52,091 nucleotides of DNA, taken from Candidatus Bathyarchaeia archaeon (GTDB lineage Archaea; Thermoproteota; Bathyarchaeia; TCS64). The stretch spans positions 1-52,091 of the forward strand of contig JBEKDF010000019.1 in NCBI GenBank assembly GCA_050014495.1, read 5' to 3'. Under the pieces are notes generated by a model. That model made no database searches, was not told the origin of the DNA, and was given only the letters and a program-made list of their open reading frames with translations. This document shows, in pieces, positions 7,142-51,824 of this stretch. The position numbers were made by a program, and so were the translations under genes. Numbering within the stretch: the stretch's first letter is position 1; every line of letters starts with the position of its first letter.

Positions 7142-7168
7142 AATACATTCTTCTCGTTTTGCGCGCGC

Positions 7169-8363
7169 ATAAGTGTTCATTAATTCATTTTCGGTCTTAT
7201 TTCTCGAATGAAGCTTTTTCCGAGCCTTAATACGTGAAGGCAGCAATACAGTTTGCAAGCTCCGGCCTCCCTATCTTGTGAGCAGATATCGCGACGGCGT
7301 AGATGCAGGCGAAGCAGATGCCGACGTGCATCCTCACCTTAGCCACCCCTCTCCACCGCAGGTTCTCCATCATCAGCTCAAGCTTACCCGCCTTGAAGCT
7401 CCGCTCCACCGACATCCTCAGCCTGTAGAGACCCACCAGCCTCGGGTCACCCTTAACCCTGAAGCGCTTAGTAAGCCACAGGTCGATCAGCGGCTCCCTC
7501 GCTTGGGACGTGTGCGGGATCACGGGCTCGACCCCCAACGCCTTAACCAATTCGAAGACCTCCGCCGAGTAGTACTGCCTATCCGCTATGACGTGGCTTA
7601 TATGCTTCCCCAGCGGCTTGAGCAGCCGTGGAGCCTCCCTCAGCAGCGGCCTCGCCACGTCCTTATCGTTGACGTTCGCGGCCCTCACCACGTACGTCAG
7701 AGGGAAGGCCTTCATCGAGACGGCGGCGTGGGCCCTCCAGCCGAGCCCGTAGTTCCTCCGGTCGGTCTTGCCGACGCGGGCGCCCCTGTCGCTCTTACCT
7801 CCCTTCCTCCCGCGCCTGGAGTACGCCCTCATGAAGGTGCTGTCCAGGCTGACCTTGACTGCCTCGCCCGGGTCCACTATGCCCACCGCGAGGGCCTGGT
7901 CCCTAAGCTCCCCGAAGAGGCCCTCGATGGCCTCGGGGCCCGCCCTGGCGATGAAGAGGCTGAACGTGTTGTGCTTCGGCGTAGAGTCGCCGAACTCGCA
8001 GATGTCTCGAGCATACTGCCTCCTCTCCAGCCTCCTGCAGAGCTTCCTCACCGATGGTATGGCCTCGAACCGCATGAACATCAGCGAGAGAAGCATGGAG
8101 CGCACGGGAAAGCGTGGCCTGCCCATCCCTGAGTTGGCGTACTTGGCTTCAATCCGGGCGGTAGTGAGGCTTATATCGATGTTTGAGAACAGGAGCTTGA
8201 GGGTGTCAAGGGGGAGGCGTTGGTAGCCGTCTGAAACGGTTTATCACCTCCATCATGACATGTTTTCAAAATTTCCTTGCATCCTCGCCTCTAAATATTT
8301 ATTCACGCCACAAATAGGCTTAATCAGGAGAAAAAGGCCGAAAAATAATTAATGAACACTTAT
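7169..8363 (-). mobile_element. Insertion sequence with DDE transposase (IS5/IS1182-like)
   Basis: Terminal inverted repeats ATAAGTGTTCATTAATT at 7169-7185 and 8347-8363, extending imperfectly inward. Flanked by GCGCGC at 7163-7168 and 8364-8369 (candidate 6-bp TSD). GC-rich interior. Confidence 0.88.
7227..8126 (-). CDS. DDE transposase (DUF772-like N-terminus plus DDE_Tnp_1-like domain); real start probably upstream near 8237
   Basis: GRPRFP, SLDST, IADRQY and YRLRMSVERSF motifs. The frame stays open 37 codons upstream of the ATG. Confidence 0.85.
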   Translation of the reverse strand: MGRPRFPVRSMLLSLMFMRFEAIPSVRKLCRRLERRQYARDICEFGDSTPKHNTFSLFIARAGPEAIEGLFGELRDQALAVGIVDPGEAVKVSLDSTFMRAYSRRGRKGGKSDRGARVGKTDRRNYGLGWRAHAAVSMKAFPLTYVVRAANVNDKDVARPLLREAPRLLKPLGKHISHVIADRQYYSAEVFELVKALGVEPVIPHTSQAREPLIDLWLTKRFRVKGDPRLVGLYRLRMSVERSFKAGKLELMMENLRWRGVAKVRMHVGICFACIYAVAISAHKIGRPELANCIAAFTY

Positions 8364-8403
8364 GCGCGCACATTAAAATGTTTTTTTTTAATGTAAATTA
8401 CTT

Positions 8404-8616
8404 TCAATTCGAAAATGATCCTCTTAAGCCAAGGTACAACAAAGCTAAACCACTCACGATTAAGAATGCTGTATCAAATAAGTTAGGTATGGATGGTAGC
8501 CAGTACCAATTGTCGAGGAAGGTTGAAAATTTTAAGGCGAAGGAGATTGTGCCAACTCCGAGCGCAACAACGATGGCTTTGAGGGCTAATTCCCGCCCAG
8601 AAAAATTCCGTTTCAT
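8404..8616 (-). CDS. Small two-TM membrane protein
   Basis: 70-aa ORF with two hydrophobic segments. Confidence 0.55.
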   Translation of the reverse strand: MKRNFSGRELALKAIVVALGVGTISFALKFSTFLDNWYWLPSIPNLFDTAFLIVSGLALLYLGLRGSFSN

Positions 8617-8839
8617 GATTACTCACTTAAACTTCTGGGTTTTATTTGAATTAAATTTCATTTAAATTTTATGCGAGCCGCTACTCCTTCTTTTTCTCAA
8701 TTATTCTCAGGCTAAGGATCGCTCGTCTTTATTCTCTTTGTGATATACTTCCTCGTATCAGGTCGAGCGCACACGCTTCGAGTCCACCATTCAACCCTTA
8801 AAGTACCAATAACTTTCTTTATTTTTTAAAGATATAATT

Positions 8840-9436
8840 TCACCCGAGGCATTTTGCATGAGTGAATGACGTACATACATCAGATGTTTTTCTTCTCTTA
8901 TTCCTCGGAAAGTATTTGTTGCAGTCGAAGCAAATTAGCTCGGTGACACGAACCAACTCTCGATCTGGTCTCCCTGCCAGTGAAATATCGGAGTACGCGG
9001 ACAAGACATGTTCACCCCCAGCAAATCTCTCATAGAGCTTCTTAAGAAGATGCGAATTTGGCATATACTTCCAATACTGGCAATAGCCATTCAACGAATA
9101 GTAGCAGTCGATGGTCTTCACCCTCGCTCTCTCGAACCTGATGTCGAAGATAGCCGACTCTATCTCTTCTCTAGAAAACTCAGTCAGCTCTTGCGTAGGA
9201 TATGTTTGTGTAGGATGTAATCTCACGATATATTTCGACATTTGTCGCCGTGATTCATCGATTTCAGACCCATTTTGTTTTTCTTGGGGTCTCTTCAGCT
9301 TCTCTATAAAGTCACGGAGCTCAGGTGTTAGGAAGCCGAGGCCGTTTTCCTCTTTGCCTTTTCTGGCTGATAGATACGGTTTGCCCTTTACAGTTTTGAT
9401 CCTGAAGTGGTATCCCTCTCGGTAATATGCCTTCAT
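8840..9436 (-). CDS. Hypothetical protein; N-terminal basic beta-hairpin domain reminiscent of SSV1 D-335/integrase N-termini, C-terminal Cys cluster
   Basis: YHFRIKTVKGKPYLSARKGKEENGLG at the N-terminus; CYYSLNGYC...CFDC at the C-terminus. Confidence 0.6.
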   Translation of the reverse strand: MKAYYREGYHFRIKTVKGKPYLSARKGKEENGLGFLTPELRDFIEKLKRPQEKQNGSEIDESRRQMSKYIVRLHPTQTYPTQELTEFSREEIESAIFDIRFERARVKTIDCYYSLNGYCQYWKYMPNSHLLKKLYERFAGGEHVLSAYSDISLAGRPDRELVRVTELICFDCNKYFPRNKRRKTSDVCTSFTHAKCLG

Positions 9437-9690
9437 TTTTTCTCTAATACTGTCATCAAGTGTAATTACAGCTCCCTCCTATGTTTCTCCCCGTGTCCCA
9501 AAATATTTCCCTTCTCACTTAGGGCTTAATATGTGCAAGGATACCCCCTCCATTAGTAGCTATCCTCTCTCTTCGATTCCCCAGACCACTATGTGATTAC
9601 TCCATTTCCCCGAGTTCCCCACGTTCTCTAGGAGCCAACAAGCTTGTATAGGCTAGCCTATATTCATCAATATGGGGAAGGAAAAATAAT

Positions 9691-10563
9691 ATGTCACACT
9701 TGATTTGCCCCCTATGCGGTCTTAATGTACCTCTCTCCAAACTAGAACGGGGAAATTTCCCCATCGACCTTAAAACCATAAGTTTCAGGAATCTGGGCTA
9801 CAGAAAAGGCTTCGGGGTCAGCGAAATAGTCTCCATTATGGGCGACGGGGAGATTACCCCGATCATCGCCGCAAGGGTAAAGAAACTGCATGACTACTTC
9901 GTTGAGCACGGGGAGATCGATACACCATTACGGCTTATCAATGAGTCTCATCTAAAGCAATGTAATGAATATGAGGAACAGCTATCTAAGTCGAATACCT
10001 ATAATATGTCTCTGAAAACGAAGTTGGAGAAGATAGAAGAAGAATATGAGCAGGATAGACAAGTAGACTACATTATTCGGGAGAGTCTTAGCATAGATAA
10101 TGCTCGTCAGCAGTTGATAGTTGATGAGCATGGATGGAAATTAACTATCTCTCCTAAACCTGGTCAACTGGAGTTTTATTTGTTTCTGCTGATGCTCGAC
10201 ATACCAGGATTACTAAAAGAGAGACTGTTGAATCACATCGAAGGCGGTGAGAACCGGGTCTTTTATAATAGGATGTTAAAAAGCTTCCCCAGGCGGCAAA
10301 GTGTCGCAGAGAGGCGTATGGATTATGACAACCCGAACACCATTATAACGATGGATGAAAATGGGAAAAGAGTCGAACGTATTTACAAGTCTAGATATTA
10401 TTTGAATAACGCTGATAAGTCAATAGACTTCGAGGAGCTAAGGAGACTCGTAAGGAAAGCGAAGGAGCACTCTACCGAACCTTTGTATATCGGTAAAACC
10501 TTATTAGAGGTCATGTATCCTGAGAAGTTGTCTCTAACATATAGAGTCGAAGACTCAAAATAG
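9691..10563 (+). CDS. Hypothetical protein with N-terminal CxxC and a central coiled coil
   Basis: 290-aa ORF; LICPLCG; E/K-rich helix; divergent from 8840..9436. Confidence 0.7.
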   Translation: MSHLICPLCGLNVPLSKLERGNFPIDLKTISFRNLGYRKGFGVSEIVSIMGDGEITPIIAARVKKLHDYFVEHGEIDTPLRLINESHLKQCNEYEEQLSKSNTYNMSLKTKLEKIEEEYEQDRQVDYIIRESLSIDNARQQLIVDEHGWKLTISPKPGQLEFYLFLLMLDIPGLLKERLLNHIEGGENRVFYNRMLKSFPRRQSVAERRMDYDNPNTIITMDENGKRVERIYKSRYYLNNADKSIDFEELRRLVRKAKEHSTEPLYIGKTLLEVMYPEKLSLTYRVEDSK

Positions 10564-10587
10564 AAACGTCTATCCCTAATTAAAAAT

Positions 10588-11786: not shown

Positions 11787-11924
11787 AAAATATCTAATCC
11801 CAAAGGCTCTTTCCGGTTAGCCTCATCTAACGTACAAATATTTTGTCAGACGAATGTCTCATCCTAACTTCCGCGCGCCTCCTGAACAGCTCCTCGATCC
11901 TATAGATGATTGACTGCGCGAGTG

Positions 11925-11952
11925 CATCTACTTCAAAATCTCGAAGTAGATG
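11925..11952. terminator. Perfect 10-bp stem-loop just past the 3' end of the 11960..12532 gene
   Basis: CATCTACTTC-N8-GAAGTAGATG. Confidence 0.45.
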
Positions 11953-11959
11953 TATATTT

Positions 11960-22203: not shown

Positions 22204-25200
22204 ATGGGTGCCAACATAATAGACTACATCGCTAGCTTCGTCATACTCCTCGGTCTATTGACAATCACAGTGACCGTGACTACGCAGACCCTCGACAACA
22301 TCTATAATTATCACAGCAGCCAGCAGATGAACACAAGAGCAACGAATCTGCTGAACGATCTCACAGAGAGCACTGGTATTCCTGAAGATTGGGCTCAGGG
22401 TTCAACAGCACCCACCAGCATAGGATTTCGCTGGGCGGTGGGTGAAGGCTCCTACATCAATCCCTTCGCACCGATGAGGTTGATGAACTCGAGCGTAACC
22501 CATTCTCTGGGTCCGTATAACTATAATGACTTATCCAGCGCCACACTAAGCCCATGGCCAAACGCTAACATCAATTTCAAGGTTGGCGACGCAGTAAGCT
22601 ATGAGGAAGCTTCTCAGCTGCTCGACACAAGTGGCAGCTACGGCTGGAGGGTGACATACAATCCCCTACTAAACATAACCCTGGCACCCACAATTGTATC
22701 CACCATTCCATGGTATCAAGGATGGGGCTACAGACAAGCCATAACGATTGACCACACACAGGTACCGGAACTTCTCACAAACTATCCCTTTCTCATCAGC
22801 TTAACCCAGCAAAACATCGCGCAAAATGCACTTGGTGACGGCGGAGACATACTCTTCACAACCTCAGATAGGGTAACAAAAATCCCTCATGAGATCGACT
22901 CATATGATAGCTCGACTGGACATCTATTAGCTTGGGTGAAGATACCACAGCTATCAAACACTGTGGATACCGTCATTTACATTTATTATGGTAATCCATC
23001 AGCTCTCAACCAGGAATCACCCAGCCAAGTTTGGTCAGGGTATCGTCTAGTCTCTCACATGAGTGACAACCCTGACTCATCTCATATCTCCGACAGCTCT
23101 CCGGATGGGCTAACTGGAACTAAAAAGGGGGACTCGGAACCTGCGCAGACAAATGGCGTAATCTCCTTCGCACAAAACTTCGATGGCTCAAATGATTACG
23201 TTACACTAAATCAGGGCACATTAACAGGCGGTTTAGTAGTATACGAGATGTGGCTGAAGAGTGTTCAATCAACCAGTCCCCAGACTATACTAACGAGTGG
23301 ATTCAAAAACAACACCCTAGGGTTCATCGATATCAGCAGGCCTTCCTCTAGTGATGATCTCTCCTTTGATTACGCAGCGAGTTCTAACTGGGTCAGTAAA
23401 ACTAATGGACTCAGTGACGGAGTCAAGATTAACTGCGTCACCTCCTACAACGGGAAAGTCTATGGGGGGGTCTCGGATGGCTCTCTAGTAGAATGGGATG
23501 GTGCCAGTAAAATATGGGTTCTAAGAGCCGCCCAACTCAATTCGCAAACCAGCATCAACTGCTTGGCAGTCTTTAATGGGAAGCTCTACGGCGGTACAAG
23601 CCCGGGGGGTCGTTTATTTGAGTGGACAACCGGAGCCACAGTCTGGACACAGAGAGCCCCTCAACTCGGGGCCGAGACTGACATAAAGTCTCTCGCAGTC
23701 TACGATCCAGGCACAGGTAGCAAACTATACGGCGGAACAAGCCCCGGAGGAAAATTGTACCAGTGGGACTCCACAAATTATGTTTGGATTCAAGTGGCGC
23801 CCAAGCTCAAGATACTGAGCCTCGCTCTATTCAACAACAAAATATACGGAGGAACTGATGACGGCCGTCTACTCGAATGGGACTCAACTAACCTTGTATG
23901 GGTTCAGGCAGCTGCACAACTAGGATCCGAGACATCCGTCAACTGTTTAACCGTCTATAATCCCGGGTCGGGAAGCAACCTCTACGCCGGGACCTCACCT
24001 GATGGGATGCTCTACCAATGGGACTCCGTGGGTCGTGCATGGATTCAGAAAGCAACTAAAGGGGCACTCTCAATCACCGACATCACATCACTGAATGTTT
24101 TCAACGGGAAAATATACGCTGGGACAAACCCTAATGCATATCTCTGTTCATGGGTATCCTCCCAGACATCCTGGAACCAGGAGCAAACAGCAGCCGGCGA
24201 ATCAATGATCAACTCTCTGGCCACTGCTGGTTCAACATCGGCTAACAGCTACGGCTTCGGTACTAACTCCGGCAACTGGAACAATCCCACACAGGCAGCA
24301 ACATCAGACAATCTATACGCTACCCCCAATACTGTTTTGACGAGGTCTCCAATCTCGAATAACGGAGCTTGGTCAAACCCAACGAATGCTTACTCCTCAG
24401 GAGGTGGAGTAGCTAGTACAACGACGTCAAGTGCTCAGCATATCTATTTTGGCTATGGTTTCTCCGTAGGTGCTAGCTCTTCAGTTGATATGGTTAGAGT
24501 AAGATTAGATGCATATTGTTCAGCCATTACCCAACAGATTAAACTTGAGATCTCTACTGATGGAGGTTCCACGTGGCGCCCAACGTCGACCACCATTAAC
24601 GTAGCATCAACAACTCTAACAACCTACTGGGTTGATGTCACATCCTGGGACACTTGGACACCAACTAAAGTTAACAATATTAGAACTAGAGTGACCTTTA
24701 TTAAATCTGGAAGTGGAACTAAAACAATAGATTTGGATTGGATCCCTGTTGAAGTTACATATTCAACTCAACCCATGACTCACACATTTTCACAGTGGAA
24801 TATCAGTCCACCCTACACAACAATCTCAAAAGTTGAGGTCGGAATAGAAGGATACACAGCTGGAACTGGCCAGCTCTCAGTAACAGTTTCCTGGGATGGT
24901 GGCACAACATGGGCCACCGCACAGACCATTAATTTACCAACGACAGACCCAAACTCCTCCACCTACCTAGACTTCACTTCAGCCACCAGCTGGACCACTA
25001 CAAAGCTCAGTAACACGAATTTCCAGGTAAAAGCTACCTATGTATATAATGGTGCAGCGAGTGCTGGATACCTAGACTACATATCCACAAGGATAACGTC
25101 ATCAGCAACACTACTCTACGCATCAACATCACCTCACACATATCTCTATTCTCTAACCACTGTAGGATCTTGGACGAAGAAAATAACTACACAGTACGGC

Positions 25201-28020
25201 ACGGACACGATAGTCCTCTCCCTAGTTAACAACGCAAATTATATCTATGGATGTGCTTCCCCTAGCGGAAAACTTCTCAGATGGGACACAACTGTAGGAG
25301 GCTCTACGTGGACTCTGGCTACCAATCCACCTACTTCTCAGATCCCGATTTCACTATTCTCAAACGGCGCAACCCTCTACTGTGGAACAACGCCAAACGG
25401 GTACCTATACACATTCAACGGGGCATCATGGACCTCCGTAGTAACGACACAGTATGGTGTTGAAACTTCAATCCTATCAATGGCGTTAGACTCGGGTGGG
25501 AACCTCAGAGTTGGCACCGACATCAACGGTCTACTACTAGGCGTGAGCGGGAGCAGCTATACGAAGAGTGCAGATATTGTGATCACGGGAGAATCCGGAA
25601 TACTATCCCTAACCGTCTTCAATCCCGGCACCGGCAACCAACTATACGGTGGGACTACCCCCAATGGTAGACTATTCGCCTGGAGTGGATCAGGCACATG
25701 GGTCCCAAAAACCACGACACTAAACAGTCAAACTGACATAACATCACTAACAGTGTTCAACCCCGGTTCGGGAAACAAGATTTACGGTGGTACAAGCCCC
25801 GGGGGTCACCTATTCGAGTGGAGCTCCGGAGCATCATCATGGACGGAGAGGGCGCCTCAGCTGGGTTCCGAGACGAAGATAAACTCGCTAGCTGTGTACA
25901 ACCCCGGTTCAGGGAGTAAGATTTATGGTAGCACAAGCCCCGATGGTTGCCTATTCGAGTGGGGGTCCGGAGCATCCGCTTGGACGCAAAGGGCTACGGA
26001 GTTTAACTCGGAAACAGATGTTACATCCTTAGTCACCTTCGACCCAGGGTCAGGAACTAAACTTTATGGCTCAACTGGTCCAAGCGGGTCGCTGCTTGTG
26101 TGGGATAATAACAGTCAATGGAGTCAGGTCGTAACGTACTCGATAATACAGTCTATGACAGCATTCAATGGTAACATCTACTGTGGGACGTCAACTGGTA
26201 GACTGTATGTATGGAACTCTGTAGCATCCCGATGGGATATGAAGGCGAGCACTCTTGGGGCAACATCCGCCGTGGACTCCCTCATCATATTCAATAATCT
26301 GCTCTATGGAGGGACGGCAGATGGTCGTCTACTGCAGTGGGATGGAACAAGTACATGGATACTGAAGGCATCACAGCTCAGCAGTCAGGCCATCAATAGT
26401 CTCGCAGTGTATAATTCGAAGATCTATGGTGGGACTAGTCCAAGCGGATGCCTATTCGAGTGGAATGGAGTCGGTGCATGGACGCAAAAAGCAGCGCAGC
26501 TAAATTCACAAACCTCCATAAATACTATTACTACTTTTAATGGCAATTTATACGGCGGCACAAGCCCCGGTGGATGTCTATTTGTATGGATGACCGGTGC
26601 TGCTCAATGGACTCAGGTTGCACCTCAGTTAGGCTCAGAGACCTCGATAAACTCCCTCGTGGTCTTTAACAATAAAATATATGCAAGCACTTCGCCGGGT
26701 GGGCGCCTCTTCCAATGGGATGGAGCTGGTACATGGATAGGCAAAACCTACATTCTAGGCTCAGAAACCAATATCCTCAGTCTTGCGATATGTAATGATA
26801 AACTGTATGGCAGCACATCACCAGATGGATTACTATACGAGTGGGATGGGGCGACAAAATGGGTGCAGATTTGCAATACCCTCAACACCCAAAGCTCCGT
26901 CACGATCATCACATTAAATGGGAATTTATATGGGGCTTCTCAGCCAACTGGTTACCTCTTCCAACTGAGTGACAGTGGCACAAGAATCATCCCGAACTTC
27001 TTCACAGGCTATAGTAACAGCTGGTTACAACTAGTAATAGTAGCAAATTATGCGGCTGGCCGAGTGGATATATACAGAAATGGATTGCTGCAAGGATCCT
27101 TGACCTCAACAACTTCAATGATTGCCCCAACTTCAGGACCCAGGTATATGGGTGCATATGTAGTCGCGGGTGTCGCCAATAACCCCTATTTTGGGGGAAT
27201 AGACGAGCTGAGGATCTCCCAAACAAATCAGGATGCGAATTGGATAAAACTGAGTTACAATAACGAAGCGAATCCAGGCAGCTTCATCACAGTAAACACA
27301 AGCGAGTCTATCTACTTCAGAGTTAGTGCACTCGTCACAGCTAAAAATGGACCAGTTAGCAACGCAACTTTGACTGGGACACTTATCTACTGCATCCCCG
27401 GTGCAACAACGCCAAGCTACTCGCAATTGACATCTCAACCCGTAACAACCAGCTCGAACGGCGCTGCAACTTTGAGTTTCAGCGGCTACACATCAACAAT
27501 CGGCGTCTATTTCCTAGCTGTGAGGGCTAATCACGCTGGAGTACAAGATATCGGCTACTACGTTAGTTCACAAACTCCAAAACCTGATCCCTTGGGAGTA
27601 TTTGTTACTAATTATGGAAATGGCACACTGACCCTAGTCCATAGAAAGGACATGGATATACATTATCCCTCATCCACAGATGTGGCTTATAACACGACTT
27701 TTGCGATGCCCATCGGACCTTCTTCCTATCGATCGGTCTCATTAAACTCTGCAGGTGTGCTTAGTGTGGGTACTCAAAAAATTGTCCAATTAGGAGCAGC
27801 TGTGGATAACCCTGGAGTACTAATCACATTTTTGAAAACCGGAGCCAACACCTATGGATTGACTTACACACCTTGGGGTGTCAGCTCTCTCAACCTAAGA
27901 GCCACCTTTGGGGCACCCATAATGGATGCCACGAATGTCATCACTAAGACGAGGATAGTCAACATCGAATCTTACACATACGAGGTCCAGGTCCAGATGT
28001 GGAAAATAGGAGGCGACTGA
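22204..28020 (+). CDS. Giant minor pilin/adhesin with inserted DUF2341, LamG, 21 beta-propeller blades and two jelly-roll-like domains
   Basis: N-terminal IIDYIASFVILL helix; GIPEDW; DUF2341 (WGYRQAITID...IYIYYGNP); LamG (FDGSNDYV...GGIDELRIS); repeats INSLAVFNGKLYGGTSPGGRLFEW. Confidence 0.8.
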   Translation: MGANIIDYIASFVILLGLLTITVTVTTQTLDNIYNYHSSQQMNTRATNLLNDLTESTGIPEDWAQGSTAPTSIGFRWAVGEGSYINPFAPMRLMNSSVTHSLGPYNYNDLSSATLSPWPNANINFKVGDAVSYEEASQLLDTSGSYGWRVTYNPLLNITLAPTIVSTIPWYQGWGYRQAITIDHTQVPELLTNYPFLISLTQQNIAQNALGDGGDILFTTSDRVTKIPHEIDSYDSSTGHLLAWVKIPQLSNTVDTVIYIYYGNPSALNQESPSQVWSGYRLVSHMSDNPDSSHISDSSPDGLTGTKKGDSEPAQTNGVISFAQNFDGSNDYVTLNQGTLTGGLVVYEMWLKSVQSTSPQTILTSGFKNNTLGFIDISRPSSSDDLSFDYAASSNWVSKTNGLSDGVKINCVTSYNGKVYGGVSDGSLVEWDGASKIWVLRAAQLNSQTSINCLAVFNGKLYGGTSPGGRLFEWTTGATVWTQRAPQLGAETDIKSLAVYDPGTGSKLYGGTSPGGKLYQWDSTNYVWIQVAPKLKILSLALFNNKIYGGTDDGRLLEWDSTNLVWVQAAAQLGSETSVNCLTVYNPGSGSNLYAGTSPDGMLYQWDSVGRAWIQKATKGALSITDITSLNVFNGKIYAGTNPNAYLCSWVSSQTSWNQEQTAAGESMINSLATAGSTSANSYGFGTNSGNWNNPTQAATSDNLYATPNTVLTRSPISNNGAWSNPTNAYSSGGGVASTTTSSAQHIYFGYGFSVGASSSVDMVRVRLDAYCSAITQQIKLEISTDGGSTWRPTSTTINVASTTLTTYWVDVTSWDTWTPTKVNNIRTRVTFIKSGSGTKTIDLDWIPVEVTYSTQPMTHTFSQWNISPPYTTISKVEVGIEGYTAGTGQLSVTVSWDGGTTWATAQTINLPTTDPNSSTYLDFTSATSWTTTKLSNTNFQVKATYVYNGAASAGYLDYISTRITSSATLLYASTSPHTYLYSLTTVGSWTKKITTQYGTDTIVLSLVNNANYIYGCASPSGKLLRWDTTVGGSTWTLATNPPTSQIPISLFSNGATLYCGTTPNGYLYTFNGASWTSVVTTQYGVETSILSMALDSGGNLRVGTDINGLLLGVSGSSYTKSADIVITGESGILSLTVFNPGTGNQLYGGTTPNGRLFAWSGSGTWVPKTTTLNSQTDITSLTVFNPGSGNKIYGGTSPGGHLFEWSSGASSWTERAPQLGSETKINSLAVYNPGSGSKIYGSTSPDGCLFEWGSGASAWTQRATEFNSETDVTSLVTFDPGSGTKLYGSTGPSGSLLVWDNNSQWSQVVTYSIIQSMTAFNGNIYCGTSTGRLYVWNSVASRWDMKASTLGATSAVDSLIIFNNLLYGGTADGRLLQWDGTSTWILKASQLSSQAINSLAVYNSKIYGGTSPSGCLFEWNGVGAWTQKAAQLNSQTSINTITTFNGNLYGGTSPGGCLFVWMTGAAQWTQVAPQLGSETSINSLVVFNNKIYASTSPGGRLFQWDGAGTWIGKTYILGSETNILSLAICNDKLYGSTSPDGLLYEWDGATKWVQICNTLNTQSSVTIITLNGNLYGASQPTGYLFQLSDSGTRIIPNFFTGYSNSWLQLVIVANYAAGRVDIYRNGLLQGSLTSTTSMIAPTSGPRYMGAYVVAGVANNPYFGGIDELRISQTNQDANWIKLSYNNEANPGSFITVNTSESIYFRVSALVTAKNGPVSNATLTGTLIYCIPGATTPSYSQLTSQPVTTSSNGAATLSFSGYTSTIGVYFLAVRANHAGVQDIGYYVSSQTPKPDPLGVFVTNYGNGTLTLVHRKDMDIHYPSSTDVAYNTTFAMPIGPSSYRSVSLNSAGVLSVGTQKIVQLGAAVDNPGVLITFLKTGANTYGLTYTPWGVSSLNLRATFGAPIMDATNVITKTRIVNIESYTYEVQVQMWKIGGD

Positions 28021-31330: not shown

Positions 31331-31535
31331 TAAAATACAATTCGCAAACTAAAGCGGCGCGTGTGCATTACCCTGCAACTTAGTAAATATCCAAACAATG
31401 TCCAACTAATAATTTTTCGAGTCTAAATAATAGCCAATACAGTATTTTTTAATTTCGAATACTTACGATCCTTAACCATATTAATTTCATCAAACAAGAA
31501 AAAACAGATTTTTAAAAAAAATCTTTACGTGTAAA

Positions 31536-36322: not shown

Positions 36323-36484
36323 CAACTTTTTTTAATACAGTCATAAGGCAATTGGTCCTCATTCACAATGATTTGGTTGAAATTTACTTCAAGTAAATGT
36401 ATGCATCAAGTTCAAAAAATAAGAGGCATAACGTCAACTACGGAGCAAAAATAGACGATTGGAAGCCTGCTCGCGCACGCGTTA

Positions 36485-37044: not shown

Positions 37045-38396
37045 GATCAGTTCCCCAGAAAGCCCACGGTTTTAACCGTGGGATGAATGGGGAGTGAAAG
37101 TGGTGAAACTGGCTATTATATATAAAGCTTCTACATTGACTCCTGTAGTCCCATCCCGAAACATTCGGTTAAGAAACAAGTAGAGGCGTGGAAGGGTCAA
37201 TTGAATCTCTCATACAAGTACCGCATAGACCCATCAGCTTCGCAGGCTCGGATACTTGAGGAACAGCTGAACCTGTGCCGATTCACCTACAACACGCTTC
37301 TGAGACACTGCTACGACGAGAGGAGAGCCGGGAGAGGAACACCCACACACGAGTCCCTGACCTACCTACTGCCAGCAATGAAGGTTGAGACACCTGAGCT
37401 GGGAAGGGTGTTCAGCCAGGTCCTGCAGAACATCGCCAAAAGAGTGAGGCTGGGCTTCGAAGGCTACTGGGCCAGGCGGAGGGCTGGGCTGAAGGCGAAC
37501 GTCCCGCACTTCAGGCGGGTGAGGGACTACAACAGCTTGACGTATCCTCAGTTCGGGTTCAAGCTGGACGAGTCAACCCTGAGGCTCTCAAGGATCGGTG
37601 AGTTAAGAATACGGCTGCATCGACCGGTTGAGGGAAAGATTAAGACTCTGACGATCAGTCGTAGTCCATCCGGGAAGTGGTACGCAGTCTTCGCATCTAC
37701 GGTTGAGGCTAGGCCGATACCCGGTAGGGAGAAGGCGGTCGGCGTGGACCTCGGGTTAAACAGCCTTGTGGCCTTATCTGATGGGACTCTAATCGAGGCT
37801 CCGAGGAGCTATCGGGAGTCGGAGGCTAAGTTGAGGAAGCTGCATCGCCGCGTCAGCAGACGATGTATGGGTTCCAACAATAGGGGGAGGGCTAGGCTTC
37901 AGTTGGCGGCTCAGTATGAGAGGGTGTCTAACCAGAGGAGGGACTTCGCGTATAAGGCTGCGAGGAGCATCGTGAACAGGTATGAGAGGATAGTTGTTGA
38001 GGACCTGAAGATCGAATATATGAGGCGGAACAGGCATCTGTCGAAGAGTATCGGTGACGCTGGGTGGGGATTGTTGGGGGACGCCTTGACCTACATGGCG
38101 CATCTGTCAGAGGGTGTGATGGCGTCTGTTGATCCCCGGTACACCAGTCAGTTATGCTCGGGATGCGGTAAGCTGGTTCCTAAAGACATAGCTGAGAGGG
38201 TTCACAGATGCCCCCACAGTGGGCTTGTGTTGGATCGTGACGTGAACGCTGCTAGGGTCATACTCCGTAAGGGGATAGGCATGGTGCGTGCCGAATCTAC
38301 GCCTGTTGGAGAGGTGGCCTCCACCCAGCTCAGCGATGTTGGGCGAGTCGCCTCGGTGAATCAGGAAGCCCACCTCTTTAGAGGTGGGTAGCTCAC
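37045..38396 (+). mobile_element. tnpB-only IS200/IS605-family element (IS1341-type)
   Basis: Left hairpin CCCACGGTTTTAACCGTGGG preceded by AAAG, with TTAC at 37041-37044. Right hairpin CCCACCTCTTTAGAGGTGGG preceded by GAAG, element ending TCAC at 38396. No tnpA. Confidence 0.88.
37201..38391 (+). CDS. tnpB: RNA-guided endonuclease TnpB
   Basis: YKYRIDP HTH, GVDLGL (RuvC-I), VVEDL (RuvC-II), TSQLCSGCG...CPHS, DRDVNAA (RuvC-III). Confidence 0.95.
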   Translation: MNLSYKYRIDPSASQARILEEQLNLCRFTYNTLLRHCYDERRAGRGTPTHESLTYLLPAMKVETPELGRVFSQVLQNIAKRVRLGFEGYWARRRAGLKANVPHFRRVRDYNSLTYPQFGFKLDESTLRLSRIGELRIRLHRPVEGKIKTLTISRSPSGKWYAVFASTVEARPIPGREKAVGVDLGLNSLVALSDGTLIEAPRSYRESEAKLRKLHRRVSRRCMGSNNRGRARLQLAAQYERVSNQRRDFAYKAARSIVNRYERIVVEDLKIEYMRRNRHLSKSIGDAGWGLLGDALTYMAHLSEGVMASVDPRYTSQLCSGCGKLVPKDIAERVHRCPHSGLVLDRDVNAARVILRKGIGMVRAESTPVGEVASTQLSDVGRVASVNQEAHLFRGG

Positions 38397-38416
38397 AAGT
38401 CCCATTGTTGAGATGA
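38250..38416 (+). ncRNA. Predicted omegaRNA (reRNA) scaffold overlapping the tnpB 3' end plus flanking guide; 5' boundary approximate
   Basis: Known TnpB architecture: the scaffold ends at the right-end TCAC and the guide is the following flank AAGTCCCATTGTTGAGATGA. Confidence 0.55.
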
Positions 38417-38768: not shown

Positions 38769-38951
38769 GAATCGCTTGCAGTAATCGAGACACATCTCAA
38801 CTTTCTCCTGTTTCAGTTACATGAACCATCGATTTAGACATAACGAGCACGCGAAAATGTCAATGTATGTTTAAAATGAAGTTTTTCTGAACTCACCTTG
38901 CCCATTTCACGCTTCGCCTTTATCGAGACTGATCATCCAAACGTAATCCTC

Positions 38952-40349: not shown

Positions 40350-40498
40350 GCTACGAGTCAGGTGAACTTCGAGCACGCGCGCCTTGAAGTGAAGCGATGT
40401 TGTCTAATTTGGCACATTAACGAAGTGGTTGAGTCTAATTGGGTGAATCGGTAACTGATCTCTCTACTCAAACACTTCACAAGAGATAGCGACGATAG

Positions 40499-44035: not shown

Positions 44036-44697
44036 GTTTGAATTCAGTATTAAAAATAATAAAGTCAGGTTTTAATTGAGATAAAGATTATATAGGTTGT
44101 CAAGATCAATAAGACATGACAGACAATCGAGTAGAACCAATTATCATAAAAGATGGTCTTATAGGTATCGATTCTTTTGTAGCACAAAAACCTCACTAGC
44201 TACTAGGAACGCTTACGACACAGCTCTTCGTTACTTCTTTACTACTATTAATCCCACTCTTTTACCAGACGGTGCGCGCGCGTTGTTTTCCCTCATTAAT
44301 TTTAAGCTAAAAGTAAGTACAACTACATCTTTCCATTCTAATCCTATATTAAATATTAAAGATAGTGGAAAAGGCAACTTAGAAATTATAATGATTGATT
44401 TCATGTTCCTTAGTATATTTGAATAATTTGGGATAATTTTTGATCAAAGGATTAATAAAAATTTTATCGTATTTTAGACTATAAAATGGGGAATTTGGTA
44501 AGCACTTGTATACAATTATGGGTTCTCTCAAAACTAATGCCTATTGTTTTCAAACCCTAACCATATTTATTAAATTTGAGGAATTCTTGGGGTTCAAGTC
44601 TTACGCTCACCCCTCAGATACTTGGCGAAGAGGAGCGCACGTGCGCGCTTTTTACGTACCTTGCCAAATAAAATATATGCTAAACTCATCTTACTTG

Positions 44698-44865: not shown

Positions 44866-45402
44866 TTGTATTAATCACCTCACTATTCTTTTCTCTAGCC
44901 AATCTAGCCCTTGTGTCAAAGTGTAATTCCACTATTGACCTATGTACCTTCTGTCCGGGTGGTGTCCAAGGTGCAAAAATAGTGAATGTAGCCATTTTTT
45001 GAAAGACCTTCAAATCGACCTAAGACGGTTGAGCCTTCGTACTTGATTAATATCTTATCGTTATACTTTAGCTTTTTAGCAGTTTCAAGTTCCATTTTAT
45101 ATCAACCACTGTCCATCTACTAGTCCTTCATTTGCTTCCTCAATATGAAATAAATTGTCATACAGTATGCTTGCGCGCTCAACGATGTACCTTACTAGGA
45201 AATTTACAAGTTACGACTCATTCTACTAAAGTGCTTTACTCCGTGGAGCTAAGGTTCATTGGGCAATTATATCTTCGCTACTTGGCGCGCGCACGCATCT
45301 GGCGAAGAGAACGTTTCTTCTCCTTCATCGGTCTGATGATCGGCAACATTCCTTCTCGGGAACGCCTTTAAAGACCAAGAACAAGCCTGATCTGAACCAA
45401 AA

Positions 45403-46548
45403 ATGAGCAACGAAGACGACACCTACTCCACGATGTTCACAGCACTCAAACACCCAATAAGGAGAAAGATACTACGAATCCTCGACCAGACGCCGACAAC
45501 GTATACAGACATACAACTGCAGCTAGGAATCGACAACGGGCTACTCAACTACCACCTCGACAACATGAAGGACCTCATCACCAAGGGCGAGGATGGAAAG
45601 TACAGCCTCTCCGAGTTCGGCAGAGCTGCAGTCAACGTGACGGAGAAAGTAGAAGCACCGACAAGGAGCAGAGGAGGAGGGCTGAGCGCCAACCAGCAGA
45701 TTGGAGTCTTCTTGATCCTAAGCATCGCAATCGCGTCGCTATCAGGATTAGGCATCCTCCTCTACAGCGACAACGTCAGCCAAAACAGGGTCCTCACCGA
45801 TAGGACCACTCAACTAAACGCGGCGTCTCAGCAACTCAGAGCCCTGATTCCCCTCGGCGAACTCGCAAACGTCTCCGAGCCTGCGACGCCGGCGACAGCG
45901 GGTACGCAGATAGTGAGGGGATTCCCGATGTCGTACTCCTACCTAGAGGAGGGAGGCATAAGCACTGCGGGTAACAGTTCCACCCATAGCGGCTTATACA
46001 ACCCGATAGATGGCACCCTCAGATTAGGGGTCACCGGCACTGTAAACTACGCATCCTCCGCGATAGTCTTCTACAACCCAACAGACGGAGCCATCGCCCA
46101 CGTGGAGCTGGCTGTGAACCCCGTGAATGTGAAGCTGCTTGAGCTCACCATCCAGAGCGGCGACGCATGGAGGAACGAAAGCTGTGTCAGGGTCGGGACT
46201 AGGGGCGGGTGGTTCAACGTTTCTGACCCCAGCGACCCGGTGCTCAAGGAGCCTGTTTGGATGTCCCCAATTCTGTGGGACATGAAGACGAGTGGAAACG
46301 GCGTCTACGAGTCGCCTGCGCTCCCTCGGGGTTGGTACACCTTCAGCCTGTTGGGGCCAGTGACGGTACTCGACCCGAATAGCTTGAAGTTCACCATAAT
46401 CGATCGTAACCCCTCCTTCGCCGATGCCCCAATCTTCACCGTGAATAACTCGACTTCTGATCTGCATAGTTTCACGGTTCTCGCTGACTTCACCCTTAGG
46501 ATTGGTGGGAAGGCAACGTTCTTCGCCGAGTCAACTGATCACTTATGA
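45403..46548 (+). CDS. ArsR-like wHTH plus TM plus extracellular domain (membrane-bound one-component regulator)
   Basis: FTALKHPIRRKIL...LNYHL...YSLSEFG; single TM; beta-rich C-terminal domain. Confidence 0.85.
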   Translation: MSNEDDTYSTMFTALKHPIRRKILRILDQTPTTYTDIQLQLGIDNGLLNYHLDNMKDLITKGEDGKYSLSEFGRAAVNVTEKVEAPTRSRGGGLSANQQIGVFLILSIAIASLSGLGILLYSDNVSQNRVLTDRTTQLNAASQQLRALIPLGELANVSEPATPATAGTQIVRGFPMSYSYLEEGGISTAGNSSTHSGLYNPIDGTLRLGVTGTVNYASSAIVFYNPTDGAIAHVELAVNPVNVKLLELTIQSGDAWRNESCVRVGTRGGWFNVSDPSDPVLKEPVWMSPILWDMKTSGNGVYESPALPRGWYTFSLLGPVTVLDPNSLKFTIIDRNPSFADAPIFTVNNSTSDLHSFTVLADFTLRIGGKATFFAESTDHL

Positions 46549-46840
46549 GAGGCTATCATTTGTTGACTCAGCTCACTAACGATCTTGGAAAGGACAAAGC
46601 GATATTTTGTCGCGCGGGCGATCGTTCAAGCAATTCGTATGCTGTTCTAAACAGTAGCGTTAAGTCACCGATACTAAGGACTAATGCACGCGCGAATCAT
46701 GAAACTATATATTATGACTATTCTGTATACGATGGATATAATTTGTATAAATTCAGTTAAAAGAAATGCGCGCGCGCAACCGTAGCTGACAAACCTGCAA
46801 TCTACGAGTACAGAAGTCGATAGTCTTCGTTTTAGTATAT

Positions 46841-47827
46841 TTAAACTGGTTTCAGACTGTTTGCCATCCTCATCAGATCGGAGGAGGAGAAACTCGTCGG
46901 CGCCCTGAGATAATACAGGACATCACCATACCGCACAATCACAACCTTCGCCCCGTTATAGCCATACAGATCAGGATAACTACCATAGTACCAGCCAATC
47001 ACACCAACGTATCCCGGATTCCCGTTGATCACAGTATAGTTACCCTCACCAATCTTCACGCCGGGGCTGGGAACCATCCAAGGCGAGTTCCAAATCATCT
47101 GAACCCCCAGCAGAACCTCGGCTGATCCCGGGTCGTCTCGTCCACTGAAACTGTAGAGGGTCGTCACCATGGTTATGATGCCCTTCTGGGTGCTCACGGC
47201 GCCCTCTTTCAACACGTAGACGGCTGTCTGCTTCATACCGTTGGGCAACCACGTTGGCTGTAGTAGTGGTGCTCCCCGATCCATACTCCACTGCGCTGCC
47301 GTAGATGTGAGGTTGGCTTTGAGACCGTACGTTTCTTCAAGGGGTATCTGTGGTATATGTTCGGGAAAGCCTCCGCTGGGGGAGTTATTCGAGGTGCTTA
47401 TGTGTGTACTATTTGAAATCAGTGAGGTCGCCGTTTTTAGCTCATTGTTCAGCGCCTGATTACTTGAATAGAGGGACCAAGTGCTGAATGAGAGGGCGAT
47501 GATTATCGCGACGCTCAGTACCTTGACTAAAAGGTCCCGACGTGAGTTAGATGGAACATCGTTGGTGATGGGTTCCTCCACCCTCTTGAGGAGCTGGACC
47601 CCGGCTCTACCGAACTCGTTGAGTGTGTATCTGCCGTCCTCCCGCTTCGTCAGTAGCTCCCTGACGCTTTCTAGGTGGTAGTTTAGGAGCCCGTTTTCTA
47701 TTGATAGCTCGTTGAGTAGATCGGTGTAGGTGGCTGGGGAGGCTTGGAGGCGTCTGAGGATTCTTCTGCGTAGTGGGTGTTTGAGGGCGGTGAATATTGT
47801 TGAATAGGTATCGTCCTCGCCGCTCAT
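46841..47827 (-). CDS. ArsR-like wHTH plus TM plus extracellular domain (paralog)
   Basis: FTALKHPLRRRIL...LNYHL...YTLNEFG; single TM; PTWLPNG...LMRMANSL (DUF4367-like) C-terminal domain. Confidence 0.85.
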   Translation of the reverse strand: MSGEDDTYSTIFTALKHPLRRRILRRLQASPATYTDLLNELSIENGLLNYHLESVRELLTKREDGRYTLNEFGRAGVQLLKRVEEPITNDVPSNSRRDLLVKVLSVAIIIALSFSTWSLYSSNQALNNELKTATSLISNSTHISTSNNSPSGGFPEHIPQIPLEETYGLKANLTSTAAQWSMDRGAPLLQPTWLPNGMKQTAVYVLKEGAVSTQKGIITMVTTLYSFSGRDDPGSAEVLLGVQMIWNSPWMVPSPGVKIGEGNYTVINGNPGYVGVIGWYYGSYPDLYGYNGAKVVIVRYGDVLYYLRAPTSFSSSDLMRMANSLKPV

Positions 47828-48364
47828 GGCTTGTGGTTCATGTCGAGTGTTTATGAGGCTTCTCGAAAAGGTTCCTTGTCTAGGGAGAAGCGTGGGTTAG
47901 AAAAGAATCGTTTTCCAAGTCGTATTTGTATGGTGCACAGGTGTTTTGAATAGCTCTATGTCACCTTTGATCCTGGCATGATTAGTATATCAGTATCCAA
48001 TCCGGCAAAAATATTGGTTGGTTTAGGTAAATAGGTCATAACTACCGATAGTATCGGTATTGAAGGGTTGTTGGGTCATTATACGCACACAACTTGTGAC
48101 GAAATCATTAGCTTTGCTTTCATTCGCAATGGTTTAAAAATCTAAGATCAAAATGTGATGAAAATTAAACTTAAGTTCTGGGGGAGTCCGCCTAAGAGTT
48201 TTGGAGTTCAGTTAAAAGTATCTCCAAAGTGTTCGAGTGCAGATACCGCCAGAGGTGTCTACAGGAGACTAAACGTTCCATTCGTTAAAAGAGTCATATC
48301 CCCTAGCATAATGACGCGCGCGAGCCCCCTCATTAAATCAATTAAAAATCCCATTAAAAATAAT

Positions 48365-49723: not shown

Positions 49724-49800
49724 AGCTTCACACCTCTTTGTATCGGGTCTAACGTTGCTCCTTAAATCCTTGGCTGGTTGGATGCGCATTTTTCTACTAG

Positions 49801-50355
49801 TCATAATCGAATCACTCCATCCATCTTCTCCCCAAGAATCAGAACTAGTTCCCTCTCACGTTTTGATAGGCCTGTTCCGAGGTCGTTTTTCAGCCTCTCG
49901 CCGAGGTACGCGTTCACAACAGATGTTTGAGCCCTGGAGATTACGGCGTATAGTGTGTCTAGTTTCCCTCTCTGCAGATACATGGAGGCGTCATTGATGA
50001 AAAGTATATCTGAGGGTGATTTGATGAACGCTTCAAGTACTTTTTCTATTTTGGCCTTGTTCGATTCAGCTATTGATACGAGTTCCCCCGGTGTCTTCGC
50101 AGTTAGACGTGGTGCCCTTAAATTCGAAGGATTCAACTCCCGAATTCTATTAACAGGGTATTCCAGGAGTTTGCCGCCGATCGATTCGTTTGATGTCGAG
50201 ACCCTTTCTGGAGCCATGTCTATCAGGGTGATATCATCATCCCCTTCGAGTGCTTCGTTCAGGAGCTTCCTCGTGAGCGTGGTCTTTCCCGACCCTACCT
50301 CTCCCGTGATTAGGATGCGCCTCCCGTAGACATCGCTAAATGATGTGTTTATCAA
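49801..50355 (-). CDS. Small P-loop NTPase of unknown function
   Basis: Walker A GEVGSGKT; ILFIND; overlaps thiW. Confidence 0.8.
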   Translation of the reverse strand: MINTSFSDVYGRRILITGEVGSGKTTLTRKLLNEALEGDDDITLIDMAPERVSTSNESIGGKLLEYPVNRIRELNPSNLRAPRLTAKTPGELVSIAESNKAKIEKVLEAFIKSPSDILFINDASMYLQRGKLDTLYAVISRAQTSVVNAYLGERLKNDLGTGLSKRERELVLILGEKMDGVIRL

Positions 50356-50920
50356 GGCCCGATCTTCTCAGCAGCTTGATAATCATTAAGCCCAAGATTG
50401 ATCCAGGTATGCAACTGGCGGCGAAGGCCAACCAGAAGAAGTAGAGGGTTGCTGACCCCCCCATTAGCGGTGACACCACTAACGCGCTTAGGGTTGCTCC
50501 TATAACGACTGTCCCAAGCGGCTCCGTCAATGCGGCGTAGTCCGTCTTCTTTATATATCTATAGACAAGCCCGACGACTAATCCACCAAATATGCTGCCT
50601 GGGTACGCGTAGATGGTGCCAACACCGAGGCCTACTCGGATCGTCGCTGTCATGAATGCCATAATCACGGCGTACCATGGACCGAGAAGTATGCCAGCTA
50701 TCGCGTTGATCATATGCTGCGAGGGTGCGACCTTCGTCACACCTATTGGGATACTCAGCGATCCCAACACAACGCTAAGAGCTGTGAGAACCGCTGCTAG
50801 TGCCAGCTTCCTGGTCGTTGTTCGTACTAGCCCAACATTTGTATCGGGCTCTTTCACATAGGTCATCAAAAAATTGACAAGTTCTGATTTCTTGCTAATC
50901 GAATCTGATCTGTTTTCCAT
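50336..50920 (-). CDS. thiW: ECF S-component ThiW (thiazole precursor uptake)
   Basis: PSQHMINAIAGILLGPWYA, YAYPGSIFG, EPLGTVVIG. Start reassigned to ATG 50920 (or 50866) because the upstream part of the ORF is a riboswitch. Confidence 0.9.
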   Translation of the reverse strand: MENRSDSISKKSELVNFLMTYVKEPDTNVGLVRTTTRKLALAAVLTALSVVLGSLSIPIGVTKVAPSQHMINAIAGILLGPWYAVIMAFMTATIRVGLGVGTIYAYPGSIFGGLVVGLVYRYIKKTDYAALTEPLGTVVIGATLSALVVSPLMGGSATLYFFWLAFAASCIPGSILGLMIIKLLRRSGLDKHII

Positions 50921-50925
50921 TTCTT

Positions 50926-51010
50926 TTTCCTCCGCCGGTATTACCCGGATCAGGTTCCAAGGGTCGACGTTTATCGTCCTCTCAGCCGGGATGATTCCCA
51001 GCTCCCCTTC
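50926..51010 (-). ncRNA. TPP riboswitch aptamer (THI element)
   Basis: Minus strand AAGGGGAGCTGGGA...TCCCGGCTGAGAGGACG...CGTCGACCCTTGGAACCTGATCCGGGTAATACCGGCGGAGG matches the TPP consensus; directly upstream of thiW-thiDN. Confidence 0.9.
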
Positions 51011-51058
51011 CAACACTATACCCTCACTTGGCATCAGATAAGAATTACTAACTCGTGA

Positions 51059-51370
51059 ATAAGTGGGATAAGTCTATGGCCCCAAACCCAAACCCAAACA
51101 AGCCTCCCAAGAAGCACCGATACACTCACTCAACGAAGCCCTTGATGCGCCGAACCATACCAGGAGAGCCCAGCCTGACAGCCGAAAAGGCCACAGCAAG
51201 CATCGAGATCAGGCTCAGAGAAACATGAATCCCCACCTGAGCCAGACCCCTGACCCTGAGACCATCCAGAAGCAACCACTCTTTAGCACGACCAAAGAGA
51301 CGCTCTTTGCTCCATCGCTTCCGGAACAACTCAACAATCCTCCTAGCACCCTTAGCAACGAACGTACCCG
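51059..51370 (-). pseudogene. 3' remnant of a DDE transposase/IS related to 7169..8363
   Basis: FVAKGARRIVELFRKRWSKERLF...LRVRGLAQVGIHV aligns with FRVKGDPRLVGLYRLRMSVERSF...LRWRGVAKVRMHV. The end motif ATAAGTG at 51059 equals the first 7 nt of that element's TIR. Confidence 0.75.
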
Positions 51371-51824
51371 ACCATGAACGCGTCCCTCAGCGCGCGCGTC
51401 AATCAGCTAGTTGTTAATTCTCCAAATGAGATGGTTGGCATAACGTTGCTTGGGAGGAATTCCTTCATTCTCGCCCAACGAACTCTATTATTGCCAGCTT
51501 CAGTGTTGGAGATATCGACGAACATGCGGTAGTTGACCATAGAGGTAACGCTGCTGCCGCCTGGGCTGCAGGAACCCCTAGGATCCTGGAAATATTCGCT
51601 TTCAATCACTCCAGGCGACCGACCATATACAAACGGGTACGCTTGCTTGAGCGAGACAGCAACGTAGTTTCAGCTCGACCCAGCTAAGTTGTATCCCCAG
51701 TACGCGCGCGCTTTGACTGGCTCGTTAAAGCGGGCGATCAACCATGGTGGCTGAGTCGATCCAAGCCCTGCAGGACAGGCGTACGCGAAAAACGTTAAAT
51801 GAAGGCGTAAACTCAGCGACCTAC

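Follow-up and report, generated by a model that had tools for sequence, protein, structure and literature searches.

The window, that is, the whole stretch of 52,091 nucleotides analysed here, comes from a Candidatus Bathyarchaeia archaeon (assembly GCA_050014495.1, contig JBEKDF010000019.1), and the elements in question are short alternating GC tracts that lie mainly between its genes. It is contig C19 of G000, a 3.1-Mb Bathyarchaeia genome in 92 contigs; other contigs with C numbers also belong to G000, the runs with X numbers (X2, X8, X12, X19) stand for contigs of other samples, and the sequencing runs that match G000 best are peat metagenomes. A tract is defined as an alternating purine–pyrimidine run of at least 8 with at least five CG/GC steps, or as a GCGCGC or CGCGCG core. 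All 19 tracts listed by the initial annotation are present where it had placed them, and 18 of them satisfy this definition, the exception being that at 38847, which is only GCACGCG. As to spacer class, convergent spacers hold 11 of them, and tandem and divergent spacers 4 each. The tracts, given without strand, and two mobile elements among them are as follows.

7160–7171: tract TGCGCGCGCATA, doubling as the left end of the IS5/IS1182-like element
7168–8363, minus strand: IS5/IS1182-like insertion sequence (IS), both ends adjoining CGCGC
8361–8373: tract TATGCGCGCACAT, where the IS5/IS1182-like element (7168–8363) has its right end
8767–8776: decayed tract GCGCACACGC, tandem spacer
11872–11878: tract CGCGCGC, exact end of an 86-bp piece with 83% copies on C15 and C80
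13657–13663: tract GCGCGCG, convergent spacer of 44 bp
31357–31368: decayed tract GCGCGTGTGCAT, convergent spacer
36472–36482: tract CGCGCACGCGT; the run X12 joints 36323→36481 and 36401→36485 resume in or just past it
37064–38318, plus strand: interior of a TnpB (IS200/IS605-type) element, 1255 bp missing from a derivative on C33 and in runs X8/X12
38847–38853: weak tract GCACGCG, convergent spacer, outside the tract definition
40373–40382: tract GCACGCGCGC, convergent spacer
44272–44283: tract GTGCGCGCGCGT, position confirmed
44635–44648: tract GCGCACGTGCGCGC; similarity to genome G016 (89%, 44570–44632) ends at its left edge
45172–45178: tract TGCGCGC, divergent spacer
45285–45298: tract GCGCGCGCACGCAT, divergent spacer; similarity to C71 starts at 45307
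46611–46616: tract CGCGCG, position confirmed
46684–46694: tract ATGCACGCGCG; a piece shared with C2 stops at 46685 and one shared with C1 starts at 46695
46766–46778: tract ATGCGCGCGCGCA, its 10-bp core complete and with an AT edge; the piece resembling C1 stops at 46766
48314–48322: tract ACGCGCGCG; the joints 48141→48331 (X8) and 48158→48331 (X12) resume 9 bp past it
51390–51399: tract GCGCGCGCGT, divergent spacer; similarity to genome G012 stops at 51391
51700–51711: tract GTACGCGCGCGC, divergent spacer; right flank 96.9% identical to C69, which is tract-less there

The TnpB element as a whole spans 37050–38397 and has hairpin ends, and GC tracts are where its non-autonomous derivatives at other sites of the genome are cut short. 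At 45403–47827, two paralogous ArsR-like/DUF7347 genes stand face to face, and the mosaic spacer between them holds three tracts.

Distribution of the tracts

Genes were called with an own hexamer model and the spacer classes were built from these calls, so that the classes carry some error; the null was a dinucleotide shuffle for spacers and a synonymous shuffle for coding sequence. Over the whole of G000, GCGCGC occurs 473 times in tandem spacers against 35 expected, 277 times against 18 in convergent spacers and 293 times against 20 in divergent spacers, an excess of 14–16-fold in each of the three classes, which bears out the intergenic enrichment that had been proposed. The word GCGCGCGC has 400 copies in spacers, where about 5 are expected; control words matched in GC content show no enrichment, and TA/AT repeats are barely enriched. 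Of the (CG)n and (CA)n tracts named by the initial annotation, the former are strongly enriched, while (CA)n alone does not follow, CACACA reaching just about 1.9-fold. The scarcity in genes was also confirmed, with 307 coding GCGCGC observed against 398 under synonymous shuffling. In total, G000 holds 1538 tracts, namely 987 in spacers, 444 in called genes and 107 past the last gene of a contig.

The attachment to gene 3′ ends and convergent junctions did not hold up, since divergent spacers are equally enriched. In the window, all 8 convergent spacers of at least 30 bp carry a listed tract, as had been claimed of nearly every such spacer; genome-wide, counting spacers above 50 bp, only 154/328 convergent ones do, beside 321/1069 tandem and 169/530 divergent ones. 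Tract density is about 1.7 times higher in convergent spacers, there is a modest peak 10–30 bp past stop codons (about 4/kb against about 2/kb), and the 40 bp upstream of start codons are depleted of tracts 4–5-fold. No consensus in the flanks and no T-run beside the tracts was found in G000. A repeated flank accompanies 157 of the 987 spacer tracts, and the clusters shown are IS ends, tRNA genes and another repeat.

The worry that the tracts are assembly artefacts was answered where it was checked, in that contigs of run X2 equal a tract-rich 20 kb of C33 letter for letter. The description of the tracts as genome-wide, intergenic and unpublished also stands, no account of them having been found in the literature searched, which largely left out subscription papers. 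As far as the available part of a survey of prokaryotes goes, GC6/GC8 patterns are generally suppressed (PMC4060949), so the excess in G000 is unusual.

In Bathyarchaeia, 32 of 201 genomes, belonging to seven families, are tract-rich (9-mer at least 20 per Mb), and most are near zero. The close relatives G001 and G010 are tract-free, and the near-zero genomes include two of the genus of G000. The enrichment is again intergenic and alike across spacer classes in G111, G213, G136 and G021, and it is weak in G012. The richest genome is G111, a single gapped scaffold; its tract statistics cover 1.22 of 1.98 Mb, with 202 gaps in the 1.22 Mb analysed.

Tracts at rearrangement junctions

Whether neighbouring genes have stayed together separates spacers with a tract from those without one. 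The synteny comparison drew on 400 kb from G016 and on 384 kb from G012. In the G016 comparison, tracts are carried by 7/114 spacers with conserved adjacency, 29/70 with broken adjacency and 47/119 beside accessory genes; in the G012 comparison, the corresponding figures are 1/80, 11/57 and 20/107. On the G000 side of the conserved pairs, a tract is found in 5/114 (G016 pairs) and 4/80 (G012 pairs). Conservation across related genomes, a check that the initial annotation had put forward, was thus run, and it turned out negative.

Sequence similarity between loci also tends to end at the tracts. Of all cases in which the flank of a tract has a copy elsewhere at an identity of at least 80%, 173/282 lose the similarity at the tract; for intergenic cores of at least 8 it stops in 76/86 and continues through in 2/86, while at random spacer sites it stops in 126/809 and continues in 613/809. 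Within the window, the tracts at 11872, 44635, 45285, 46684, 46766, 48314, 51390 and 51700 lie at the end of a match to another locus or no more than about 10 bp from it, and similarity to C2 starts at 48328, just past ACGCGCGCG. Of 13 joints in contigs of other samples, 5 end at or carry a tract, short-sided joints being open to repeat artefacts, and a contig of run X19 matches C33 solely between two tracts. Of the sharp repeat ends in G111, 7/19 have a run, where 9% would be expected. Judged from these comparisons of sequence, the tracts are marks of rearrangement junctions and not gene-end signals.

Two further observations concern junctions in general. A second junction-associated motif (GGAAGTGAGGATAAGGCTAT-like) occurs in many G000 spacers (e.g., C7:91904, C24:5929, C32:2555), and the similarity of copies stops there too. 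In addition, C24:1425–1503 of G000 and C3:53386–53465 of G012 are 99–100% identical up to a tract, in species whose proteins are about 85% identical; this shared stretch is probably a recent transfer.

The letters of the tract are mostly new at the break. At 127 of 152 non-IS breaks, the homologous copy, taken here to show the ancestral state, has no CGCG/GCGC; in two-sided cases, where both parents are known, the motif is on neither side in 6/10; and in G111 it is absent from the homologue in 13 of the 21 cases in which similarity stops. For example, (CG)5 stands in place of 455 bp at C33:31598, 9 letters stand in place of 320 bp at C14:4044, and 7 letters are swapped for GCGCGCG without change of length at C9:85300. 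The three belong to a set of 15 non-identical two-sided cases, of which 8 are a single tandem-repeat gene of G012. Pieces of 214 and 341 bp from other loci are bounded by tracts on both sides. In the TnpB derivative (C33; runs X8/X12), positions 37064–38318 are replaced by 7–9 new letters of alternating G and C, and CGCG is at neither breakpoint of this deletion in the window allele. C33 carries GCGCGCGTG at the deletion and run X12 has the pure form, which is consistent with a tract that would have been (GC)5 at birth and underwent one later transition. Among truncated transposases in other genomes, 3/6 end at a tract which their intact relatives lack.

The insert is also limited in length. 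Pure spacer runs in G000 number 161 at 8 bp, 115 at 9 bp and 87 at 10 bp, then 4 at 11 bp and 1 at 12 bp, and degenerate cores drop from 180 to 39 past 10 bp. The 11 youngest motif-free junctions have cores of 10, 10, 10, 10, 10, 9, 9, 8, 7, 7 and 6, and 9 of them share 1–2 bases between the joined ends. Pure CG runs well beyond 10 bp are rare; they were seen at C124:128–151+ of G144, at 1404–1419 of locus L033 and as one 18-mer in G000.

The edges of the insert differ between lineages. In G000, the base in front of runs of at least 8 with an initial G is T (0.63) and the next one outward A (0.41), whereas in G111 the two are A (0.78) and T (0.55). The fully bounded forms of G111 are chiefly A(GC)4T (50) and A(GC)5T (48), cores of 8, 10 and 12 being found 50, 48 and 6 times. 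The counts of TA versus AT edges are 128/14 in G127, 256/25 in G128, 11/88 in G151, 16/52 in G209 and 54/121 in G013. The edge goes by family, AT (AT|GCGC) in f1 and f27 and TA (TA|GCGC) in f17, f26 and f11; in G021 of f1, T mostly precedes G, yet AT is not favoured. For at least 5 of the 21 stopping cases in G111, the homologue does not have the edge base, the base beyond it being native; of the edge bases in G000, 12/20 are native. TA stands on both sides in 12/99, about the product of the single-edge rates, so the two edges are independent. A TA target-site duplication (IS630/mariner-like) was considered for the G111 form and rejected, because TA is found on both sides as often as independent edges would give and its T is not native.

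Substitutions within the tracts were said to keep the purine–pyrimidine alternation, and this is indeed so: 88–94% of the interruptions are transitions net of the null, compared with about 61% in non-coding alignments.

Origin of the tracts

The reading preferred here, with a probability of about 0.6, is that the tracts are scars of an end-joining process in which broken ends are given short GC tails that are self-complementary. Each broken 3′ end would receive from a host enzyme first T or A and then about GCGCGC; the tails would let any two ends pair, after which the join would be filled and ligated. With both ends tailed and annealing in variable register, cores of 6, 8, 10 and rarely 12 bp with G...C ends would be produced. 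IS excision and TnpB cuts may supply some of the breaks, and the tracts would later decay by transitions, as in the one case seen with both alleles. Junctions would survive outside genes and promoters and mostly be lost inside them, which would explain the apparent marking of gene ends, the convergent bias and the avoidance of promoters. Taken together, position, novelty, length, G...C ends and independent edges make tailing of both ends the simplest account. The tracts are a real and apparently unpublished signature, probably of repair.

An unlikely source of the tracts is transposition itself, in which an IS5/IS1182-like clade would target RCGCGY and duplicate CGCG, and insertion, excision and adjacent deletion would leave the tracts behind. 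The window element at 7168–8363 encodes a transposase with DDE_Tnp_1 and DUF772 (7227–8081) between 73-bp imperfect terminal inverted repeats, and this transposase scores under the curated cut-offs of the IS1182 and IS5 models alike. In 18/19 loci of its relatives, all terminal repeats found have CGCGC or a one-letter variant (ends CGCG+C); 68 of 80 IS-type ends adjoin CGCGC, with G before it in 64 of the 68, and G+CGCG+CGCG+C sums to 10. The clade also goes with tract richness, being present in 16/32 tract-rich and 25/169 other genomes, where kin are not independent, and rho between clade and richness in the family is 0.43. In the part of the source available, IS-linked adjacent deletions are moreover a known event (PMC11708052). 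On the other side, the 79 IS-type ends are too few for 1538 tracts, about 5% of which adjoin such an end, and the supposed target is absent from the homologues at most breaks. In 16/32 tract-rich genomes, among them all 5 of family f26, no member of the clade was found, with collapsed repeats in metagenome-assembled genomes (MAGs) as a caveat, and the clade is present in the tract-poor G184, G202, G167 and G116. Searches of the single-record G111 (all 1.98 Mb, as for the clade) and G056 gave no DDE_Tnp_1 match, collapsed copies being possible in the gapped G111, and no element-end repeats lie beside 702 G111 tracts. Two of five intact elements have left and right runs that add up to 17 and 18, beyond what a 10-bp target allows, and a TA edge base that is not native does not fit either. 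Compared with known IS5/IS1182 target-site duplications, the clade in G000 is alike in its CGCG+C ends and its DDE_Tnp_1 and DUF772 transposase, and unlike in that most breakpoints had no target and many rich genomes have no clade. The IS would be a user of scars plus a source of breaks, and tracts would not require it.

As regards the clade itself (window 7168–8363, about 79 G000 ends, loci L017–L035), it is active, with ends C-N5-TGT-N4-AAATT whose context is strictly CGCG. The majority of copies are collapsed at contig ends, and four adjoin the end of another IS instead. An empty site of the window element was not found in one scan of metagenome contigs.

Capture of a ready-made palindromic oligonucleotide, such as a de novo primase primer like A(GC)nT, joined by 1–2-base microhomology, would leave the same junction evidence as tailing, and the dominance of A(GC)4T and A(GC)5T in G111, the 1–2 bases shared at most young junctions and the cliff past 10 bp all suit it; the several lengths of the bounded forms and the independence of the two edges fit two tails better than one fixed piece, and capture is accordingly regarded as improbable. 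Still less is to be said for fragile microsatellites, that is, CG runs that slip, grow and break above about 10 bp as hairpin or Z-DNA and whose halves rejoin, so that the tracts would cause the junctions. Tracts do sit at breakpoints and pure runs above 10 are depleted relative to impure ones, but growth in place is almost never seen (the 2/86 run through), neither TA nor AT repeats are enriched, the motif is missing from both parents in most two-sided cases, and slippage would not yield a fixed, non-alternating TA edge; this account is judged very unlikely. The functional punctuation favoured by the initial annotation, with Z-DNA buffers, termination, chromatin or SMC (structural maintenance of chromosomes) sites kept at gene ends and convergent junctions, is hardly credible any more. 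The denser convergent spacers, the small peak past stop codons and the excess of transitions speak for it, as does the finding that 3 of the 7 tract-bearing conserved G016 spacers also have a tract in G000 (Fisher p 0.001), at positions that do not align. However, 105/114 and 76/80 conserved spacers are tract-less in both genomes, divergent spacers are enriched like tandem ones, neither flank consensus nor T-run is present, and the tracts are absent from the close relatives and from most of the class. The TA|GC edge breaks the purine–pyrimidine alternation, which argues against a Z-DNA constraint, and a search for gyrase found it in 0/61 genomes of the family. A Z-alpha search gave no match, the positive control being likewise undetected. 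A methylation signal, the last function suggested, fails as well, since a C5 methylase (PF00145) is present in no contig of G000 and in 4/61 genomes of the family, and coding GCGCGC lies below expectation.

Returning to end joining with GC tails, a number of results weigh against it, including the association of the IS clade with tract richness given above and much of the enzyme search given below. Similarity continues through 26/51 tracts in G111 and stops at 21 (control 34/208). Among sharp non-IS repeat ends, 88/110 have no CG run of at least 5, so the process would not be the sole joining route; of the CG-less ends that were inspected, many belong to a different repeated motif or to IS of other types. 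The remaining 3/6 truncated transposases end without a CG run. The homologous copies behind the counts of missing motifs are paralogues or other species and not true ancestors. Pure runs above 10 fall below a length-only prediction (5/103 at 11–14 bp), and their scarcity hints at some selection or instability. Moreover, the transition excess in the tracts is not explained by ordinary decay and favours the first annotation; it could come from synthesis errors or from fast C-to-T change.

Candidate enzymes, comparable systems and neighbouring features

A complete operon for non-homologous end joining (NHEJ) lies on C3 of G000 (L096 4207–7464), with LigD polymerase, Ku and a ligase fused to a phosphoesterase. 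Ku/LigD was rejected as the tract writer: LigD polymerase, found in 28/61 genomes of the family, occurs in 0/10 genomes of two tract-rich genera and is present in the tract-free G001 and G010; a search for Ku in G021 found none. No reverse transcriptase (PF00078) was found in 5 genomes in which the controls were detected, though a very divergent one could have escaped, and PolY was found in none of 5. PriS and PolX are each present in 5/5 genomes tested. As correlates of the tracts, the PolB set and PolX were dismissed because both also occur in tract-free genomes, and the copy number of NurA because it does not separate rich from free genomes. A 439-aa primase-like protein occurs in just 6/201 genomes, and a 268-aa one in 19/201 (7/32 rich versus 12/169 poor), mostly as fragments, so neither was retained. 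Among 137 genes that G111 and G000 have in common and that are tract-flanked in both, a Pfam scan matched no polymerase, nucleotidyltransferase or reverse transcriptase at E 1e-18; the 137 are from 139 picked out of 628 shared genes, the two left out including a PolB already seen.

As to the two primase-like genes themselves, the 439-aa protein (L086 844–2163, C20 of G000) has a primase domain of the archaeo-eukaryotic (AEP) type and an unknown C-terminal half, and it is found in 5 genomes of the genus. The 268-aa PriS-like protein (L218 1259–2062, C53 of G000) has fragments on five further contigs; its 91 relatives in the database lie mainly on short contigs, and its gene looks mobile. Around 8 small-primase loci no shared upstream element that might encode a template RNA for the repeat was found, the search being limited to these loci.

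Since the edge type goes with the family, the writer of the tail is guessed to be a core enzyme passed on vertically, such as the replicative primase PriSL, or PolX. A bolder version, entertained only tentatively, is that several Bathyarchaeia lineages possess a dedicated repair polymerase that would write a self-complementary T- or A-GCGCGC tail, its first base depending on the lineage, by protein or RNA templating on any broken end, stitching unrelated or foreign DNA together without homology, stamping each join and creating landing pads for the IS clade.

Among known systems, archaeo-prokaryotic NHEJ (Ku, LigD polymerase, phosphoesterase and ligase) works on ends that are unrelated to each other and may insert untemplated bases. 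Its operon is present in G000, but the presence of the genes does not follow the tracts, and to our knowledge its additions are short and never a fixed repeat. In telomerase healing, a defined repeat is added at a break after alignment of 1–2 bases and then decays in place; here, by contrast, no reverse transcriptase was matched in the 5 genomes, and the G000 repeat is self-complementary and would join rather than cap the ends. The repetitive extragenic palindromes and bacterial interspersed mosaic elements (REP/BIME) are numerous intergenic palindromes and targets of IS. The tracts differ from them in being 6–12 bp long, with no conserved flank or 20–40-bp stem-loop body, and in being tied to breakpoints and not kept in place. 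They also differ from a methylation palindrome like HIP1 (highly iterated palindrome 1), as G000 has no cognate C5 methyltransferase and genes show no enrichment. Closer in kind is the Ku-independent end joining of Saccharolobus, in which, according to the available portions of the reports, the primase PriSL(X) bridges ends and transfers untemplated bases to their termini (PMC12019639, PMC3333859). This system is likewise archaeal and uses a primase with terminal-transfer and annealing activity and very short microhomology; in the same portions, Saccharolobus shows mostly 1–2-bp indels and neither a fixed insert of 6–10 bp of alternating GC nor a lineage-specific edge. The accessible sections of two further papers describe protein-templated synthesis of poly(dCdA) by DRT3b (PMC13174585) and dinucleotide expansion by Pol mu, which is iterative during end joining (PMC3592450). 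Both resemble the proposed tailing in that an alternating dinucleotide is written without a nucleic-acid template or iteratively in end joining. They are, so far as these sections go, a phage-defence reverse transcriptase and a human enzyme that make other repeats and are not known to leave genome-wide scars.

The ways in which archaea lacking Ku rejoin breaks and take up unrelated DNA are largely open, and a fixed self-complementary insert would, if true, be a new form of end joining. The tailing reading predicts a polymerase with an unusual and easily assayed product, for which the two edge types would offer a built-in test of specificity in any candidate enzyme, and an enzyme that joins ends without homology would be useful as a tool. 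In addition, about 1,500 joins in G000, datable by their decay, would be a record of genes and fragments gained, lost and moved.

As for the rest of the window, Rfam and tRNA scans gave nothing but one thiamine pyrophosphate (TPP) riboswitch, which lies at 50910–51018 on the minus strand, upstream of thiW, an ATPase gene and thiD. Two very large, repeat-rich proteins of surface type are encoded at 191–7120 (Ig-like domains, InlB B-repeats) and 22204–28020 (DUF2341, beta-propeller, laminin G).

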